From: Polaromonas sp.
GTDB taxonomy: Bacteria > Pseudomonadota > Gammaproteobacteria > Burkholderiales > Burkholderiaceae_C
DNA: 64,000 nucleotides
NCBI GenBank assembly: GCA_044357185.1
Contig: JBIKPY010000006.1
Span: forward strand, 4,086 to 68,085
Direction: 5' to 3'
The notes under the pieces were generated by a model, which was given only the letters and a program-made list of their open reading frames with translations, did no database searches and was not told the DNA's origin. The translations under genes were made by a program, and so were the position numbers. Below are positions 18,833-26,121 of this stretch, piece after piece; position 1 is the stretch's first letter; every line of letters begins with the position of its first letter.

Positions 18833-20068
18833 ATGCAAACCCATCTCGCACCCGAATTCCAAGGCACGGCCGACGGCCTGGCTGCCGAAGCTATTTTGCG
18901 CAAGTGCGTGCACTGCGGTTTTTGCACTGCCACCTGCCCGACTTACCAGCTTCTGGGCGACGAGCTCGACGGCCCGCGCGGACGCATTTACCTTATCAAG
19001 CAAGTGCTCGAAGGTCAGACGCCCACGCGCAAGACGCAACAGCATCTGGACCGCTGCCTGACCTGCCGCAACTGCGAAAGCACCTGCCCCAGCGGCGTGG
19101 ACTACGGCCACCTGGTGGACATCGGCCGCAAGCTGGTGGACGAACGCGTGGCACGCCCCGCCGCTGAAAAAGCCCTGCGCTGGGCACTCAAAGAGGGCTT
19201 GCCTTCGCCTTTGTTTGCGCCGGCCATGAAGCTCGGCCAGGCCGTGCGTGGACTGTTGCCCGCCAGCCTGAAGAACAAGGTGCCGGCCGCGCAAGACGCC
19301 GGTGTGTGGCCTACGCGCACGCATGCGCGCAAGGTGCTGATGCTGGCGGGTTGCGTGCAGCCGGCCATGCAACCGAACATCAACAGTGCCACCGCGCGCG
19401 TGCTGGACGCTGCCGGCATCGAGGTGGTGCTGGCCGCCAAAGCAGCTTGCTGCGGTGCGGTGAAGTTCCACCTGAACGACCACGATGGCGCCAAGGCCGA
19501 GATGCGCCGCAACATTGACGCGTGGTGGCCGCTCATGCAAGACGGATCCGGGGTTGAGGCCTTGGTGATGAATGCCTCAGGCTGCGGCGTGATGGTCAAA
19601 GACTACGGCCATGCATTGCAGGGCGATCCCCTGTACGCAGCCAAAGCGCAGCGCGTGAGTGAACTCACACGCGACCTGAGCGAGCTGCTGCCCGACCTGG
19701 TGCCGGCGTTGCGGGCTCGCCTGCAAAGCGCACCGGCGCAGCAAATCACGTTTCACCCGCCCTGCACTTTGCAGCACGGCCAGCAACTGCGCGGCGGCGT
19801 TGAAAAGCACCTAGGCGATCTGGGCTTCAAGATCAATGTGGCCAGTTGCGAGGCCCACCTGTGCTGCGGCTCAGCCGGCACCTACTCGGTGTTGCAGCCT
19901 GAGCTGTCTTACGCGCTGCGTGACCGCAAACTGGCCAACCTGGCGCAGATGCAGCCGGACACCATCGTCTCAGCCAACATCGGCTGCATCACCCATTTGC
20001 AAAGCGGCACCGCCACGCCGGTGCGTCATTGGGTCGAGGTGCTGGACGAGGCGCTGAGCCAGGTCTGA
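18833..20068 (+). CDS. glcF: Glycolate oxidase Fe-S subunit
   Basis: ILRKCVHCGFCTATCP, CLTCRNCESTCP, two CCG domains. Confidence 0.96.
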   Translation: MQTHLAPEFQGTADGLAAEAILRKCVHCGFCTATCPTYQLLGDELDGPRGRIYLIKQVLEGQTPTRKTQQHLDRCLTCRNCESTCPSGVDYGHLVDIGRKLVDERVARPAAEKALRWALKEGLPSPLFAPAMKLGQAVRGLLPASLKNKVPAAQDAGVWPTRTHARKVLMLAGCVQPAMQPNINSATARVLDAAGIEVVLAAKAACCGAVKFHLNDHDGAKAEMRRNIDAWWPLMQDGSGVEALVMNASGCGVMVKDYGHALQGDPLYAAKAQRVSELTRDLSELLPDLVPALRARLQSAPAQQITFHPPCTLQHGQQLRGGVEKHLGDLGFKINVASCEAHLCCGSAGTYSVLQPELSYALRDRKLANLAQMQPDTIVSANIGCITHLQSGTATPVRHWVEVLDEALSQV

Positions 20069-20090: not shown

Positions 20091-20474
20091 CTAGGCTGTA
20101 TCAGCACGCCACTCGGCACGCGTCATGCTGTAGTGCAGGCCCACGCTGTCGCAGTCGGGGTACACCGCGGTTTTGGCGCTGCGCACATCCACAGCGCGCA
20201 CCCGCCCGTCCAGCGCAAAGCAGATGTCGATGACTTCCTGCATCAGCGTTTCCTGCAAATTGAAGTGGCGCGAGCCCATCAAGGCAGAGACCTGCGCACG
20301 CAAGGCGTCATAGTCCACCGTTTCGGCGATGGTGTCATGCCGGGTGCGGTAGTCCGCATCAAGGGCTAAGCGCAGGTCCAGGCGAAAGGGTTGAGGGCCT
20401 GTTTTTTCAAAAGCGTGAATGCCGATAGACACCGGCAATTGCAGTGCGGCCAGTTCAATCCATTTGTCCATCAC
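20091..20474 (-). CDS. folB: FolB/FolX-family protein (dihydroneopterin aldolase/epimerase)
   Basis: IGIHAFEK, TVDY, FNLQETL, KTAVYPD; the Glu/Tyr/Glu/Lys catalytic positions of the T-fold are present. Confidence 0.82.
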   Translation of the reverse strand: MMDKWIELAALQLPVSIGIHAFEKTGPQPFRLDLRLALDADYRTRHDTIAETVDYDALRAQVSALMGSRHFNLQETLMQEVIDICFALDGRVRAVDVRSAKTAVYPDCDSVGLHYSMTRAEWRADTA

Positions 20475-21256
20475 AAGTCCTTGTTCTCAAAAGCCACGTC
20501 GCGCTGGCGCGGCACCAGGTGCTGGCCGCCGTCCACCAGCAACGTCTGGCCGGTGACGGCCAGGGCGTCGTCAAGCATCAGTACCGCCATGGCAATGTCT
20601 TGCGGCGTGCTGGACTGGCCGAGTGCGGCGATTTTTTGCGAGCGCTCAAACTCGGCCGGCGTCATGTCGCCGCTGAGCAGGGTCACGCCGGGGCTGATGG
20701 CGTTGACGCGCAAATAAGGCGCGCAGCATTGCGCCAGATAGCGGATGCTGGCGCCTGAACCCAGCTTGGCTAGTGTGTACGACAGGTAGTCGATGTTGAG
20801 GTTTTCCAGCTTCTGGTCGAGCAGCGTCACCACATGGCCGGACCGCGTGCCTGCTGCTTGGCTGTGTTGCGCAAGGTAGTGCCGGTGCAGCGCCATGGTC
20901 AGCTCGACCGGCGCGATGAAGTTGGTTTGAAGGTGCTGCTCAAAGCGCGCCGGCTCAAAACTGTGGGCGTTGTCGTACTCAAACATGGAAGCGTTGTTGA
21001 CGAGCAGGTGCAACTCGCCCGTCAGGCGCAGCACCGCGTCTACCAAGCCCGTGCGCTGGGCCGTGTCGGCCAGATCGGCCTGAATGATGAAGGCCGCCGC
21101 GGCGCCAGCGGCCAGGCAGTCCTCGCGTGTGCGCGCGGCTGCTTTGTCGCTGCCTTTGTAGTGAATCACCACCGTGTCACCGCGGCCGGCCAGCGCCAGG
21201 CAGATCTCACGCCCCAGGCGCTGGGCGCCGCCGGTCACCAGACTGACGCGGCTCAT
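20471..21256 (-). CDS. Pteridine-reductase-like SDR (FolM/PTR1/PruA type)
   Basis: TGGAQRLG (Arg in the Gly motif), VVIHY, LVNNASMF, YTLAK (YxxxK), RVNAISPG; overlaps the folB-like start. Confidence 0.82.
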   Translation of the reverse strand: MSRVSLVTGGAQRLGREICLALAGRGDTVVIHYKGSDKAAARTREDCLAAGAAAAFIIQADLADTAQRTGLVDAVLRLTGELHLLVNNASMFEYDNAHSFEPARFEQHLQTNFIAPVELTMALHRHYLAQHSQAAGTRSGHVVTLLDQKLENLNIDYLSYTLAKLGSGASIRYLAQCCAPYLRVNAISPGVTLLSGDMTPAEFERSQKIAALGQSSTPQDIAMAVLMLDDALAVTGQTLLVDGGQHLVPRQRDVAFENKDL

Positions 21257-21532
21257 GACACGCGCCCCTTGGCATTTGGATTCGTTAGCATCTGACTGTC
21301 CGTGTTCATGGTCGTGTTCGTTCGGGTGTGGCTGAGCCAGCCCCAATTACAACACCTGGCGAATCTGCATGGTGTCCGGTGTCGGCCCGGCTGGCTTGGA
21401 CATTGCTTGTCTTCAAAAGCAAGCACTTAAAGGCTTTGCTAAAGTAAGAAAAACATCACATGATTGCGTAGTTTTTTGTGGTGAAATAGAACTTTAAGTT
21501 GATTTTCGTTTAACTCAGTGTCAAAAGTACTT

Positions 21533-22045
21533 ATGGAAAACAGATTCGTAGCATGGTGGCTGGCTGTTGTTTTCACTGCTGGTTTTCCGTCCTGGGCAGC
21601 AGCCGCAGACCCGGCCGCTGTTTTGTTGACGGTGACGGGCAATATCCAGCCGGCCAAAAATACGGCCGGCAACAAAGTCACCTTCAACTTTAAAGAGCTC
21701 AGCGCAATGCCCGTCACCAGCATCCGCGCCACCACCAACTATTCGGGCAACGCCGAATACACCGGCCCGTTGATGAAAGACGTGCTCGCCAAGGCGGGCA
21801 TGCCGGCCACGGCCAAGGAGGTCATTTTGGTCGGGCTTGACGGTTACCAGATCCGAGTACCTGTCAGCGACTTCGTGAAGTGGGAGGTGGTGTTGGCCTA
21901 CACCCAGAACGGCAAACGCCTGGAGATTGAAACCAAGGGCCCCTTGCTCGTCATGTACCCGAACGACAAATACCCTAAAGAGTTGCGCAACCATGCCACC
22001 AACATCAAGCAGGTCTGGGCGCTGGTGAGCGTCAAGGTTCAGTAG
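21533..22045 (+). CDS. Periplasmic SUOX/YedY-fold protein, PruR-like putative pterin receptor (GTG 21518 also possible)
   Basis: Sec signal ending AAA; LLTVTG, YTGPLMKDVL, GLDGY, KGPLLVMYPND, VWAL; no Cys and no Tat motif. Confidence 0.8.
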   Translation: MENRFVAWWLAVVFTAGFPSWAAAADPAAVLLTVTGNIQPAKNTAGNKVTFNFKELSAMPVTSIRATTNYSGNAEYTGPLMKDVLAKAGMPATAKEVILVGLDGYQIRVPVSDFVKWEVVLAYTQNGKRLEIETKGPLLVMYPNDKYPKELRNHATNIKQVWALVSVKVQ

Positions 22046-22055
22046 GTCGCCATAG

Positions 22056-23933
22056 ATGCCAAACATACCGGACAAAATCGAGCAGAAAAAATCGGGGTTT
22101 CTGCTCAAGCAGTCACGCCGTTCGATACGGTTCAAACGCTGGCTCACCGTCAGTGCGGCGAGCTCCATTCTGGTTTTGTTTGGCCTGATTGCCTACCAGT
22201 TCGCAAGCACCTGGAAGGACTACAACGAACATCTGGGGGCCAGCAGCGCGACTGAAAGCTGGCTGAACCGCAAGCTCATCAGCTACAAAAGCATTGACAG
22301 TTACGACATGCTGCTGGCCTTGCGGCGTCTGGAGGCTGCCACCCTGCGCCATGCTGTTGGCAACATGAGCCAGAAGGACCTGTCGGACCAGCGCAAACAA
22401 GTCGCTTCCATGTTTGTGCACTTTGCCCCCGGCAGCATCTTCTACAAAGATTTTTTGGTCGACTATCCATCATTCGATCCTGCCTACCAGAGCACCCTCA
22501 CTTTTTTGAATACGGCGCAAAAGTTCGAAGCCGGGTTACAGACCATCAACGTGGTTCTGGAGAGTGCCGACACTGCGCTGGGCGACTGGATGATGTTCAC
22601 GCAAGACACGATCCGCGTGGAAATCGAATTGCGCGACGGAATGGAGAGCACCATCATTTCTTTCAGGCCGCTGGCCGAGCGCACCTTCTGGATCATCAGC
22701 ATTTTGCTGAGCCTGTTTGCGGCCGCCTCGCTGGCCGCCATTTACGCCGGTTGGGGCCTGATCAAGGGCGAGCAAAGACGCTTTTCGCGCTTTGAGCTCC
22801 TGGTGTCTTCGGTCGGGCACGACCTGCTGAGCCCGCTGCAGGCTATTCAGGGTGCGGGTAGCCTGCTGGCCACCGAGCTGAGCCCGGAAAAGCGCAAGCG
22901 CTTTGCCGGCATCATCCGGCTTTCCTCGCAAACATTGGCGCGGCTGGTCGGTGACATTTTGCAGATTTCGCAAGACAAGTCGCTGGACATCCGACCCCGT
23001 GCTGTCCCTCTCGAAGACTTTTTCAGCCAGATCGCCGCCGCTTTTGAAAGCAAGGCGGAGGCCAGAGGCCTGGTCTTCAGGCGAAATTTTCTGTTGCAAG
23101 GCGCCGAGGTGAAAGTAGACCCCGAACGCCTGTCGCAGTGCGTTGGCAACTTGCTTGAAAATGCGCTGCGCTACACCGAGCTGGGCTCAGTCACCCTGTA
23201 TTGCCGGCTGGACCTGCCCGGCGACGAGTTCAGCGCCCCGCAGCTGGTGGTTGAAGTCAGCGACACCGGTATCGGCATACCGATCGAAGACCAAAGCCGG
23301 GTGTTCGAGCCTTTCGAGCAAGTCAAGGGCGCCAAGAAGCAGGGCATGGGGCTGGGCCTGTCTATCGTGCGCAGTATCGTGACGGCCATGCATGGCGAGA
23401 TACGCTTGGAGTCAGTGCATCAGCGCGGCAGCAAGTTCACCATCACGCTGCCGGTTGTGCTGGTGCAAAGCACCATTGCCGAAGCCGCGGCCGATGCGGC
23501 ACCTGTGCTGCATCCACACTGCCAACCGGTACCGGCCAAACCGGGCGGCGCTGCTATTTTGGTGGTCGATGACGATGAACTGATTCGCATCTCTGTGGTC
23601 GAGATCCTGCGGGGCGCAGGTTACAACACTGACGAAGCGCCCTCCGGCGAAGAAGCGCTGACCAAGGTGCTGGCCGGCACTTACCAGGCGGTGGTGAGCG
23701 ACATTCAAATGGGCGGCATGGACGGCTTTGAGCTGGCCCAAAGCATCCGCCAGCAAAAGCCGGCCCGGCCTTACCTGATTGCCATGACGGCGCACACCCG
23801 CAACCTGGGCAGCGGTCCCAAGGCCGCGATGTTTGATGGGTTTTTGGGCAAGCCGTTTTCTGCTGAAAGCTTGCTTGAGCAGCTGGACAAAGCCCGCGGC
23901 CGCGCCGGCGATAGCGTGGCGCTCAGCGTTTAA
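22056..23933 (+). CDS. Membrane-bound hybrid sensor histidine kinase (periplasmic sensor, HisKA, HATPase, REC)
   Basis: Two TM segments; H-box VGHDLLSPL, N-box NLLENALRYT, G1 DTGIGI, G2 GMGLGL; receiver VVDDD...SDIQM...KPF. Confidence 0.93.
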   Translation: MPNIPDKIEQKKSGFLLKQSRRSIRFKRWLTVSAASSILVLFGLIAYQFASTWKDYNEHLGASSATESWLNRKLISYKSIDSYDMLLALRRLEAATLRHAVGNMSQKDLSDQRKQVASMFVHFAPGSIFYKDFLVDYPSFDPAYQSTLTFLNTAQKFEAGLQTINVVLESADTALGDWMMFTQDTIRVEIELRDGMESTIISFRPLAERTFWIISILLSLFAAASLAAIYAGWGLIKGEQRRFSRFELLVSSVGHDLLSPLQAIQGAGSLLATELSPEKRKRFAGIIRLSSQTLARLVGDILQISQDKSLDIRPRAVPLEDFFSQIAAAFESKAEARGLVFRRNFLLQGAEVKVDPERLSQCVGNLLENALRYTELGSVTLYCRLDLPGDEFSAPQLVVEVSDTGIGIPIEDQSRVFEPFEQVKGAKKQGMGLGLSIVRSIVTAMHGEIRLESVHQRGSKFTITLPVVLVQSTIAEAAADAAPVLHPHCQPVPAKPGGAAILVVDDDELIRISVVEILRGAGYNTDEAPSGEEALTKVLAGTYQAVVSDIQMGGMDGFELAQSIRQQKPARPYLIAMTAHTRNLGSGPKAAMFDGFLGKPFSAESLLEQLDKARGRAGDSVALSV

Positions 23934-24841
23934 GACGCCGGTTTTTTAGCGCTTGCTTCAGGCGCCAGAGCCGCCAGCAGCGCTGCCAGCACAATCAACC
24001 CCCCGCCGGCCAGTGTGCGGGTGCTGAACTCGGCCGCGTCCAGCCAGGCCGAAGAGGCGCTGGCAAACAAAATCTCGGTCAGCATGACCAGTGCCGTGGT
24101 GCTGGCGGCCAGCCGCGCTGCACCGTATTGCAGCGCCAGGTTGCCCAGCAAGAAGGCCAGACACAGGCCCAGGGCCGCCGGCACACCGGCCAGCGCAAAG
24201 GCCGGTGCCGGCACAATTTGCGCGCTCATGCCGGCCCAGGCTGCGGCACCGGCCATGATGGCGCCACCGGCGAACATGGCCAGCATGCGCGACTCTGCGG
24301 GCGTCTGCCCGTGCTTGCGCAGCAACACATTGGTGAGCGCAAAAGCCAGGCCGCCCATCAGTGCCAGCCAGTCAGCGATGCTGGCCGGCACCGGCCACGG
24401 CGAGCCGGGTGACTTCAGCACGATCACCACGCCGGCCAGTGCCAGCGCCAGGCGAAAAAGCGAGCCCGCGGTGGGCTTTTCATTGAGCAGCAGCCAGGCA
24501 ATGAGCACCGACCAGGCGGGCATCAGGTAAAACAGCAGCACCACGCGCACCACATCGCCCACTGTCACGGCCCAATTGAAGCCGACGTTCGTCAGGCCCG
24601 AGGCCACCAGCAGCAGCAAGAGGCCGCGGTGTTGCAGCAAGCCGCGCCAGGCCTGCGGCTTCCATACCCACACGCCAATGGCCGCTACCAGGTAAATCAT
24701 CACCGTTGACCACAGCGGATGCAGGCCCTTGGCCTGAAGCTCGCGCAAAGGCCACCATGAAATACCCCAGACCAGCGCATTGAGCACCAGTGCCAGCACG
24801 GCCAGCGTGGGGCGGCTGGCGCCACCCTGAGTTGGCTGCAT
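23930..24841 (-). CDS. DMT/EamA-family transporter
   Basis: NALVWGISW, about 10 hydrophobic segments, LFYLMPAW, LTEILFA. Confidence 0.9.
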   Translation of the reverse strand: MQPTQGGASRPTLAVLALVLNALVWGISWWPLRELQAKGLHPLWSTVMIYLVAAIGVWVWKPQAWRGLLQHRGLLLLLVASGLTNVGFNWAVTVGDVVRVVLLFYLMPAWSVLIAWLLLNEKPTAGSLFRLALALAGVVIVLKSPGSPWPVPASIADWLALMGGLAFALTNVLLRKHGQTPAESRMLAMFAGGAIMAGAAAWAGMSAQIVPAPAFALAGVPAALGLCLAFLLGNLALQYGAARLAASTTALVMLTEILFASASSAWLDAAEFSTRTLAGGGLIVLAALLAALAPEASAKKPAS

Positions 24842-26121
24842 CAGTGGCTCTTGTCGCTGCGGGCGATGCGGAGCAGGTCTTCGACCTCCTCCTTGTGGTG
24901 CACGCAGTTGCTTTGGTGCCAGCGCTGGATGATCCACATGAAGCCGGCCACCACGATGCCAAAGGCGGTGATGGCACCAAAGGCCGACAGGCCCAGGCCG
25001 GTGGACAGGCTGTAAAACCCACCCAGCGCCAGAATGCAGGCCTGCTCGTTGAAGTTCTGCACGGCGATCGAGCGGCCGGCACCCATCAGGTTGTGGCCTC
25101 GGTGCTGCAAGAGCGCGTTCATGGGCACCACCAGAAAGCCGCCCAGGCCGCCCAGCAGAATCAGGAAAGGCGCAGCCACCCACACGTTGTCAATGAAATT
25201 CATCAGGATCACCAACAGGCCCATGCCGATGCCCAGCGGCATCACGCTGGTGGCCTGGTCCAGCCGCATGCGCATGGAGGCCAGCACCGCACCCACGGCA
25301 GTGCCGATGGCCACCACGCCCACCAGTGAGGAGGCCTGCGTGGTGCTGTAGCCCAGAGCAGCGGCGCTCCATGCCAGCACGATGTAGCGCAAGTTGCCCG
25401 ACACACCCCAGAACAGCGTGGTGGTCGCCAGCGAAATCTGGCCCAGCTTGTCGCGCCACAGGGCGGTGTTGCAGCGCCAGAAGTCAGGCAGCAGTTCGAG
25501 CTTGTTGCCTGGCATGGGCCGCATTTCGACGCCGGTGCGTGGAATGCGCGTGTTGAACCAGGCTGCCAGTATGTAGACAAAAATCAGGCAGCTGATGGCG
25601 GCTTCAGCAGCGGTATCGACGCCGGTCGTGAGACCGGGCATATCAATCTGCAGGAGCGCGGCGGAAATGTTGGCGCCCACCAGCTGGCCGCCCAGCAGCA
25701 CACCCAAAATGATGGAGGCAATGGTCAGGCCCTCGATCCAGCCGTTCGCCTTGACCAGCTGTGAGGCCGGCAGCAGCTCGGTCAGGATGCCGTACTTGGC
25801 AGGCGAGTAAGCGGCAGCGCCCAGGCCCACGATGGCGTAGGCCATCAGCGGGTGCGAGCCGAACAGCATCATCAGGCAACCCACCACCTTGATGGAGTTG
25901 CTGATGAACATGACTTGGCCTTTGGGACGGGCGTCAGCCAAAGCGCCCACAAAGGGCGCCAGCACCACGTAAAACAGCGCAAACATGGGCACCAGCGCAG
26001 CGGGCTGCCATTTGGGCGCGCCACTGTTGCGCAGCAACTCCACAGCCACCACAAACAGGGCGTTGTCAGCCAGCGAGCTGAAAAACTGCGCCGCCATGAT
26101 GGTGTAAAAACCGCGCTTCAT
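24841..26121 (-). CDS. lplT: Lysophospholipid transporter (MFS)
   Basis: MAAQFFSSLADNAL, YSPAKYGILTEL, VKANGWIEG, GRSIAVQNFNEQ. Confidence 0.93.
   Translation of the reverse strand: MKRGFYTIMAAQFFSSLADNALFVVAVELLRNSGAPKWQPAALVPMFALFYVVLAPFVGALADARPKGQVMFISNSIKVVGCLMMLFGSHPLMAYAIVGLGAAAYSPAKYGILTELLPASQLVKANGWIEGLTIASIILGVLLGGQLVGANISAALLQIDMPGLTTGVDTAAEAAISCLIFVYILAAWFNTRIPRTGVEMRPMPGNKLELLPDFWRCNTALWRDKLGQISLATTTLFWGVSGNLRYIVLAWSAAALGYSTTQASSLVGVVAIGTAVGAVLASMRMRLDQATSVMPLGIGMGLLVILMNFIDNVWVAAPFLILLGGLGGFLVVPMNALLQHRGHNLMGAGRSIAVQNFNEQACILALGGFYSLSTGLGLSAFGAITAFGIVVAGFMWIIQRWHQSNCVHHKEEVEDLLRIARSDKSH

Follow-up and report, generated by a model that had tools for sequence, protein, structure and literature searches.

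A PruR-like protein and a hybrid histidine kinase beside a PruA-type reductase and a FolB paralogue in a Polaromonas genome: a probable pterin make-and-sense module

Gene content of the locus

We analyzed a 64,000-nucleotide stretch of DNA from Polaromonas sp. (assembly GCA_044357185.1, contig JBIKPY010000006.1, positions 4,086 to 68,085 of the forward strand; hereafter the window, in whose numbering all positions are given). The source genome is a freshwater Polaromonas/Rhodoferax-type metagenome-assembled genome (MAG) of 2.75 Mb, 92% complete. The locus studied here comprises two divergent gene pairs, one for a PruR-like periplasmic protein (PruRw) and a hybrid sensor histidine kinase, the other for a PruA-type short-chain dehydrogenase/reductase (SDR; the window protein is called SDRw) and a paralogue of FolB (FolBw). 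The features of the locus are the following:

20091-20474 (open reading frame; likely start ATG 20471), minus strand: FolB-family paralogue FolBw, about 126 aa, Pfam FolB
20471-21259, minus strand: PruA-type SDR, SDRw, 262 aa, with TGGAQRLG, NNAS and YTLAK motifs
21260-21532: divergent intergenic region with the presumed promoters of both units, AT-rich (47% G+C)
21533-22045 (alternative start 21518), plus strand: PruR-like protein PruRw, 170 aa, Oxidored_molyb domain, signal-peptide-like N-terminus
22056-23933, plus strand: hybrid sensor histidine kinase with HisKA, HATPase_c and receiver (REC) domains (Pfam)

The locus is real and intact. A first-pass annotation of this DNA had described an SDR with a pteridine-reductase signature, translationally coupled to a FolB-family gene and divergent, across about 275 bp, from a PruR-like gene. 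All three signature motifs are present in the SDRw translation. The start of FolBw was chosen from homologues beginning with M[DE]KWI, and with this choice the SDRw stop and the FolBw start overlap (TGATG / GTGA), which supports translational coupling. The divergent gap measures 258-273 bp, or about 171-186 bp if SDRw starts at a conserved TTG at 21346, and the gap between PruRw and the kinase is 10 bp. Base composition was compared for signs of a recent foreign origin: the PruR-kinase pair has a G+C content of 56-59%, the whole genome 59.6% and the flanking DNA 63-66%, with similar values at third codon positions (GC3).

The PruR-like periplasmic protein

A phmmer comparison of PruRw with proteins of known structure gave matches to the PruR structures 7rkb, 7kos, 7kom and 7kp2, with E-values from 3e-14 to 6e-11. 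The AlphaFold2 (AF2) model of PruRw had a predicted local distance difference test (pLDDT) score of 83, and its top Foldseek matches were 7kos/7kou, 7rkb, 7kom and 7kp2 (template modelling score TMt 0.85-0.89, root mean square deviation (rmsd) 1.5-1.9 Å), ranked above the sulfite oxidases. The best fold match was Agrobacterium PruR (7kos/7kou; TM 0.86-0.89, rmsd 1.5 Å). PruRw is thus predicted to adopt the degenerate sulfite-oxidase (SUOX) fold of the solved PruR structures, and the Mo-binding Cys is absent from it, as it is from PruR. The hydrophobic N-terminus MENRFVAWWLAVVFTAGFPSWAAAADP, together with an Ala-X-Ala site, resembles a signal peptide, and the low-confidence N-terminal helix of the model agrees with a secretion signal.

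The pterin ring in the PruR crystal structures is sandwiched by Y104 and W160 (PMC11194511), and Y110 and W167 of PruRw align with these two residues (Agrobacterium numbering for the former). Among 26 aligned homologues W167 is nearly invariant, and Y110 is kept in the subclade of PruRs linked to the two enzymes, described below, as well as in most other homologues, three of which have Phe. Elsewhere in the pocket, the pterin-hydrogen-bonding Asn102-Asp is replaced in PruRw by Asp108-Gly109, within a GLDGY motif conserved in the linked subclade, and Trp70 of the Pro-Trp (PW) motif is replaced by Tyr, with His or Phe in relatives. The unlinked sister PruRs carry TLD[N/D]YP and the Trp, and compared with these sisters the pocket changes are confined to the enzyme-linked subclade. 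This co-variation of pocket change and enzyme linkage is the best hint that the linked PruRs may read a particular pterin, and the changes themselves (Asp-Gly; Tyr for Trp70) suggest that this ligand differs somewhat from the one bound by Agrobacterium PruR.

The reductase and the FolB paralogue

SDRw carries, as TGGAQRLG, the TGX3RXG motif that holds the pteridine-reductase Arg (PMC13259868) and, as YTLAK, the catalytic motif YX3K; R14 and Y161 were invariant and K165 nearly so in an alignment of 16 SDR sequences. The best NCBIfam models were PRK09134 and then PRK09135, and SDRw fell under every curated NCBIfam cut-off: 246.7 against 281 bits for PRK09134, 155 against 288 bits for PRK09135 ('pteridine reductase') and 90.7 against 249 bits for PRK06483 (dihydromonapterin reductase). 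The top PDB matches were 5bt9 and 5tgd ('FolM alternative dihydrofolate reductase'; E about 2e-32). In the SDR tree the protein grouped with other cassette SDRs with support of 100/100, leaving the SDR of the housekeeping pair and that of a third SDR-FolB type outside. From its sequence we class SDRw as a putative NADPH-dependent pteridine reductase. Upstream of its ATG, 87 nt (21260-21346, minus strand) are conserved without indels across the clade and read in frame as a 29-aa peptide rich in His and acidic residues, LGLAQPHPNEHDHEHGQSDANESKCQGARV, with a TTG/GTG start straight after a stop codon. This peptide could be an N-terminal extension, as reported for Agrobacterium PruA, or a conserved leader.

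FolBw passed the cut-offs of Pfam FolB (78 against 31.8 bits) and of the TIGR00526 FolB domain (46.5 against 45.05), and failed those of the housekeeping folB equivalog TIGR00525 (47 against 72.15 bits) and of the FolX equivalog NF008418 (34.6 against 152 bits). Its best PDB profile match was 3v9o (E 4e-14); the FolX structure 1b9l was matched with an E-value of 2e-7, similar in strength to the matches of canonical FolB structures. Judged by these scores, FolBw lies about as far from FolX as from canonical FolB and is orthologous to neither, so that the 'FolX' part of its earlier label, 'FolB/FolX-like', is only loosely true. The four catalytic residues of dihydroneopterin aldolases (E22, Y54, E74 and K100 in S. 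aureus numbering) are retained in FolBw as E23, Y55, E75 and K101, which were invariant over all FolB types in a 21-sequence alignment. In the tree, the FolBw clade was supported 99/98 and stood apart from the housekeeping FolB, here called FolB2, and from the third SDR-FolB type. FolBw is probably a dihydroneopterin aldolase/epimerase-type enzyme of an accessory cassette, and sequence does not tell which of the two. We also noticed, in one species of the genus, an SDR-FolB-FolB tandem (G003:C95, L008, 7254-8790), in which a FolB of the third type (40% identical to FolBw) is followed by one of the housekeeping FolB2 type.

SDR-FolB pairs are common in Burkholderiales, and the first-pass annotation had warned that, SDR-folB being a common housekeeping pair there, the adjacency in the window could be accidental. 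In a housekeeping explanation SDRw and FolBw would serve folate or pterin-cofactor metabolism, either as an alternative dihydrofolate reductase (DHFR) or as a source of tetrahydromonapterin for a hydroxylase, and would have no part in signalling. The second, housekeeping folB that the annotation proposed to look for is present: FolB2 adjoins ttcA on contig C41 (C41:8325-10559). The usual arrangement in most species of the genus is methyltransferase / SDR-FolB2-ttcA (here and below, a slash separates blocks of genes), and the methyltransferase, ttcA and FolB2 (87% identical) of another genome, G019 (contig C80), are orthologous to the genes on contig C41. The C41 locus, however, is without its SDR, and FolB2 and the divergent, DUF185-like methyltransferase lie 2 bp apart. 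This loss leaves SDRw as the sole SDR of its type in the genome (at E <= 1e-30), and SDRw may have taken over the role of the lost enzyme, which would favour the housekeeping explanation, as does the 'FolM' label of its best PDB relative.

On the other hand, FolB2, folA-thyA and folE are all present separately, and with folA-thyA and folE in place SDRw is not needed as a DHFR. No Biopterin_H (aromatic amino-acid) hydroxylase was found in the MAG, which is only 92% complete, and as far as this MAG shows the pair is not needed for a hydroxylase cofactor either. The housekeeping SDR of the genus is 45-47% identical to SDRw, and FolB2 is 30-33% identical to FolBw; in the trees the window pair belongs to a separate accessory clade and not to the housekeeping pair. 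The cassette is accessory, patchy and often borne on plasmids or integrative and conjugative elements (ICEs), and a housekeeping role would leave its recurrent linkage to the PruR-kinase pair unexplained. We thus regard a purely housekeeping role as highly improbable.

The hybrid kinase

Hydrophobic segments at about residues 35-52 and 203-225 of the kinase mark two transmembrane segments, which flank a periplasmic domain of about 145 aa; HisKA, HATPase_c and REC domains follow, and the protein contains no histidine phosphotransfer (HPt) domain. Its best NCBIfam resemblance is to TorS. The kinases of the module, that is, those encoded with linked PruRs, all share H255, the N and G boxes, D549 and, in the periplasmic part, W53, S64, Y83, D84, L92, S139, D184 and E189; the window kinase thus retains every catalytic box and the receiver Asp. 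AF2 modelled residues 1-250 as a helical bundle, for which the fold search of the sensor domain gave no significant PDB match and only a weak resemblance to four-helix-bundle sensors. One stand-alone HPt candidate is encoded in the genome, on contig C82.

A regulator gene was observed beside three versions of the module (L062:2021-2836, L065:9751-10563 and L021:9495-10613). Its product has an N-terminal helix-turn-helix (HTH)-like region, a middle domain and a C-terminal receiver, of which Pfam sees only the receiver. A search for a homologue in the genome studied here gave similarity at the level of the receiver only and no close match.

Recurrence of the partnership in other lineages

In the PruR tree seven PruR sequences, representing five lineages, formed one side of a branch (support 77/93) within a clade supported 98/94, and in each of these lineages an SDR gene lies within a few hundred bp of PruR. 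The SDR is of the SDRw type in four of the five (55-60% identical to SDRw; about 260 bits with PRK09134 where scanned), and that of the P0020 contig is known to family level only. Likewise, a FolB of the FolBw type (52-63% identical) is found in four of the five. The gene order is different in every linked lineage, and three of the settings resemble plasmids or ICEs (HK, histidine kinase; RR, response regulator):

Window clade: FolB-SDR / PruR-HK
L019, plasmid-like (ParA, KfrA, replication protein, PIN-MazE): flavoprotein-SDR-FolB-PruR-HK
L062/L063 and Rhodoferax antarcticus, mobile-element genes nearby: RR-HK-PruR / flavoprotein-SDR-FolB
L065, TraI-type ICE-like context: SDR-FolB-flavoprotein-PruR-HK / RR
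P0020 contig: SDR-PruR-HK

The identities of the L019 proteins to those of the window are 60% for the SDR, 63% for FolB, 52% for PruR and 43% for the kinase. Such a recurrence of SDRw and FolBw with the PruR-kinase pair, each time rearranged, is the signature expected of functional coupling. PruR homologues further removed are widespread: they turned up in 162 of 401 genomes of the family, in 7 of another 400 genomes of the order and at 20 additional metagenome or genome loci. No SDRw or FolB gene was found beside them in these three controls; for the family control, contigs and coordinates were compared by eye for the approximately 35-40 genomes present in both match lists. Viral contigs scanned for the PruR subclade gave no match. 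The synteny check proposed in the first-pass annotation thus found a partnership that recurs in five PruR lineages and does not extend to distant PruRs, and which exceeds chance. A broader rule, that all PruR homologues at least 40% identical to PruRw are linked, was considered and rejected: the genomes G589 and G539, whose PruRs (43-44% identical) are the two remaining members of the clade supported 98/94, have PruR and its kinase with no such enzymes nearby.

The flavoprotein of the gene orders above is a TrxB-like FAD/NAD(P) oxidoreductase of about 310 aa, which accompanies SDR-FolB in five versions of the cassette, with or without the PruR-kinase pair (L019:7878-8801, L062:5308-6231, L065:6400-7356, L088:4300-5238 and L089:4293-5225), and is absent from the window. 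No curated family fits it: the best model, thioredoxin reductase, scored about 80-88 bits, where 343 are needed. It may add a third enzyme to the pterin branch, redox recycling being one conceivable role. In Rhodoferax antarcticus ANT.BR (L021:5515-6025) the module SDR was called as two overlapping fragments of 88 and 111 aa, which points to a frameshift or an assembly error; the SDR of the metagenome version L062 is intact.

A proposed make-and-sense module and the alternatives

Our preferred reading, which we hold to be probable, is that the four genes work together to make and sense a pterin. The module would be a variant of the PruR-DTB class, whose members pair PruR with a TorS/BaeS-like kinase that carries a DcpA-type periplasmic domain (a class that PMC11194511 named from genome surveys and PMC13259868 reviews). 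Most likely, the enzymes supply the signal for the sensor. The analysis shows directly what the genes are, the fold of PruRw, the conservation of residues for catalysis and binding, and the recurrent, rearranged linkage. The chemistry, ligand, export, PruR-kinase contact and output of the following scheme are deduced from sequence, predicted structure and gene neighbourhoods. FolBw would divert 7,8-dihydroneopterin in the cytoplasm into a side-branch pterin, by aldolase or epimerase chemistry, and SDRw would use NADPH to convert the dihydropterin to its tetrahydro form. The pterin would then reach the periplasm and bind secreted PruRw, in the pocket that combines the Tyr/Trp sandwich with the subclade-specific changes. 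Ligand-loaded PruRw could dock on the periplasmic helical domain of the kinase and shift its kinase/phosphatase balance, and the onward signal would need a separate HPt protein and a response regulator.

Several observations weigh against this reading. PruRw has neither the PW motif nor Asn102 and so departs from the published PruR features, and in the module kinases we found no Trp with a Glu eight residues on, that is, no WX7E motif, which defines DcpA-type periplasmic domains. No response regulator adjoins the window copy, and neither an exporter nor a response regulator was identified for it. The sister PruR-kinase pairs of G589 and G539 do without the enzymes, confining the link to the GLDGY subclade; only five linked lineages are known, and the support for the monophyly of their PruRs (77/93) is moderate. 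Of ten FolBw-type contexts sampled, four were linked to a PruR-kinase pair and six were not, several of the latter being flavoprotein-SDR-FolB cassettes on plasmid-like DNA. The remaining points come from the immediate surroundings of the locus in related genomes, where the following neighbours matter:

18833-20068, plus strand: glcF
23930-24844, minus strand: EamA, convergent with the kinase, the two stops overlapping by 4 bp
24841-26121, minus strand: LplT, beyond EamA

In the sister species G002 the same EamA/glcF locus contains FolB (86% identical) and the SDR (92%), with EamA-LplT immediately after them. Homology between G002 and the window breaks off at about 21395 and starts again at the EamA stop, so that the PruR-kinase segment of about 2.5 kb is absent from G002. 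A contig of a related lineage, P0055 (FolB 70% identical), has the order alr / LplT-EamA-GSHPx-SDR-FolB-(different kinase) / glcFED. These two cases indicate that the enzymes do not need the sensor and that SDR-FolB is resident at the locus, and hence that the adjacency in the window goes back to an insertion or a deletion of the PruR-kinase pair; relative to G002, either the window lineage could have gained the segment or G002 could have lost it. The dependence looks one-sided: the sensor seems to require the enzymes, which can do without it. Among the findings that the first-pass annotation had named as speaking against a module were a single folB in the genome, which is not the case here, and the same SDR-FolB context in relatives that lack the PruR-kinase pair, which is partly the case, in G002 and on the P0055 contig.

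Some further features of these regions were noted. A short hairpin followed by a T-run lies across the overlapping kinase and EamA stops, at the edge of the indel (23926-23948), and may be the terminator of the PruR-kinase unit. The different kinase beside SDR-FolB on the P0055 contig is a protein of 1195 aa with two HisKA-HATPase-REC units. Among the unlinked cassettes, the SDR-FolB pair of L064 (L064:1-6405) ends an apparent operon of biotin-synthesis-like genes (two aminotransferases, BioD-like and BioB) with a cytochrome P450, on an element that also carries ArdC, Toprim and Fic genes, and the flavoprotein-SDR-FolB cassette of L089 is adjoined by a type IV (Csf) CRISPR-Cas cluster (L089:9511-12468), which fits a plasmid location.

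The conserved surroundings in G002 and P0055 also bear on EamA, proposed in the first-pass annotation as a possible exporter within a produce-export-sense module. We rejected this candidate: LplT-EamA is a resident flank, kept in both relatives without the PruR-kinase pair, and the module copies of L019, L062, L065 and R. antarcticus have no EamA gene nearby. What stands of the earlier proposal is ligand synthesis beside sensing, borne out by the recurrent, rearranged partnership.

The same relatives raise the possibility that the neighbourhood is accidental, a mobile PruR-kinase pair having been inserted or retained beside a resident SDR-FolB pair with which it does not cooperate here. The presence of SDR-FolB at this locus without the sensor in both relatives, the clean breaks of G002 homology at about 21395 and at the EamA stop, and the interspersion of linked and unlinked SDR-FolB pairs in the trees are all compatible with such an event. 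However, it is very unlikely that the sensor landed by chance next to the very enzyme pair which accompanies every other member of its PruR subclade, and no other examined PruR homologue adjoins a FolB or SDRw gene. An accidental neighbourhood is therefore quite unlikely in our opinion.

The main alternative to the make-and-sense reading is reversed or feedback regulation. The PruR-kinase pair could sense an external cue, either an exogenous pterin or the periplasmic redox state via a pterin, and control the transcription of SDR-FolB(-flavoprotein); the enzymes would then be the regulated target and not, or not only, the source of the ligand, and both arrangements could coexist as a feedback loop. 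The arrangement of the units, divergent or co-directional, is typical where a regulator adjoins its target, an HTH-like/receiver regulator is adjacent in three versions of the module, and the cassette works elsewhere without the sensor, which fits an optional layer of control added to a metabolic cassette. However, the window copy has no such regulator beside it and the genome no close homologue of one, and in L019 and L065 the enzymes and the sensor apparently form one co-directional unit, for which differential control is less obvious. A simple scan of the divergent region of the window gave no sigma-70 consensus, and neither an inverted repeat nor an operator motif was found there that would indicate a shared operator or promoter, the conservation of the region being at clade level only. 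Reversed control is in our view unlikely.

A bolder extension of the make-and-sense reading, which we consider unlikely, is that the flavoprotein-SDR-FolB cassette and the GLDGY PruR-kinase pair constitute a mobile, plasmid- or ICE-borne 'private channel' of pterin signalling. If this were true, carriers would make and release a distinct reduced pterin, whose level or redox state would be read in the periplasm by a re-tuned PruR, and the pterin would act like a horizontally spreading autoinducer or redox reporter. Cells with the cassette only would be producers, and cells with the full module producer-responders.

Comparison with known systems

The closest established parallel is the Agrobacterium PruA-PruR-DcpA system, in which tetrahydromonapterin made by PruA promotes the interaction of PruR with DcpA (PMC11194511); the PruA-dependent pterin control of PruR-DcpA is established there, with pruA unlinked to pruR (PMC4488946, PMC11194511). 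The window shares with it a PruA-type SDR carrying the Arg of the TGX3RXG motif, a secreted protein of predicted PruR fold (TM 0.86-0.89 to 7kos/7kou) with the Tyr/Trp sandwich kept, and a PruR gene immediately upstream of that for a membrane regulator with a periplasmic domain. In contrast to the GGDEF-EAL enzyme DcpA, the output protein in the window is a hybrid histidine kinase, and it is without the WX7E motif. Moreover, the reductase and a dedicated FolB paralogue adjoin the sensor, whereas Agrobacterium pruA lies next to uvrC, and in PruRw Asp-Gly replaces Asn102-Asp, and Tyr replaces Trp70, of Agrobacterium PruR.

The FolX-FolM branch of E. coli and Pseudomonas aeruginosa (Pribat et al. 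2010, as cited in PMC4488946 and PMC13259868) also combines a FolB-superfamily enzyme with a pteridine-reductase-type SDR and is a side route from dihydroneopterin (phosphates) to a tetrahydropterin, as the window pair may be. However, with 34.6 bits where the FolX model requires 152, FolBw does not rank as a FolX orthologue, SDRw is nearer to the PruA/PRK09134 group than to FolM (PRK06483, 90.7 bits), and no phenylalanine hydroxylase that could use the cofactor was found in this genome. By analogy, the sensor may also be compared to TorT-TorS, as was done for PruR in PMC11194511, where a soluble periplasmic binding protein modulates a TorS-like hybrid kinase through a periplasmic helical domain. 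TorT is of unrelated fold and binds trimethylamine N-oxide (TMAO), and TorS, unlike the window kinase, has its own HPt domain.

The PruR-DTB class is recognized by a pruR gene directly upstream of that for a protein with two transmembrane segments, a periplasmic domain of about 140-190 aa and a TorS/BaeS-like kinase core. The two-gene PruR-kinase operon of the window has this layout, with two transmembrane segments, a periplasmic domain of about 145 aa and a TorS-like HisKA-HATPase core with a receiver. It differs from the class as published in that its kinase subfamily lacks the defining WX7E motif, its subclade is found largely on mobile elements, and it is linked to genes of pterin synthesis. 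In the literature searched we found no linkage of a PruR-kinase pair to SDR-FolB, and PMC11194511 and the 2026 review PMC13259868 are both silent on folB, on an aldolase and on neighbouring genes for synthesis. The open questions named in the review are the in vivo ligand of PruR, the dependence of PruR on PruA-like reductases, and the way by which pterins leave the cell.

PruR-DTB kinase systems have so far been named from genome surveys only, and the recurrent physical linkage of a dedicated reductase and a FolB paralogue with one PruR-kinase subclade offers a compact, testable system. The enzymes beside the sensor could help to identify the signal, as two or three of them should yield a candidate ligand, and the pocket changes of the subclade (Asp-Gly; Tyr for Trp) provide a direct hypothesis of specificity. 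The occurrence of the module on plasmids and ICEs points to pterin sensing as a trait that can be gained in one piece. What is new within the known PruR-DTB class is a divergent PruR-kinase subclade that travels with a dedicated PruA-type reductase and a FolB paralogue.

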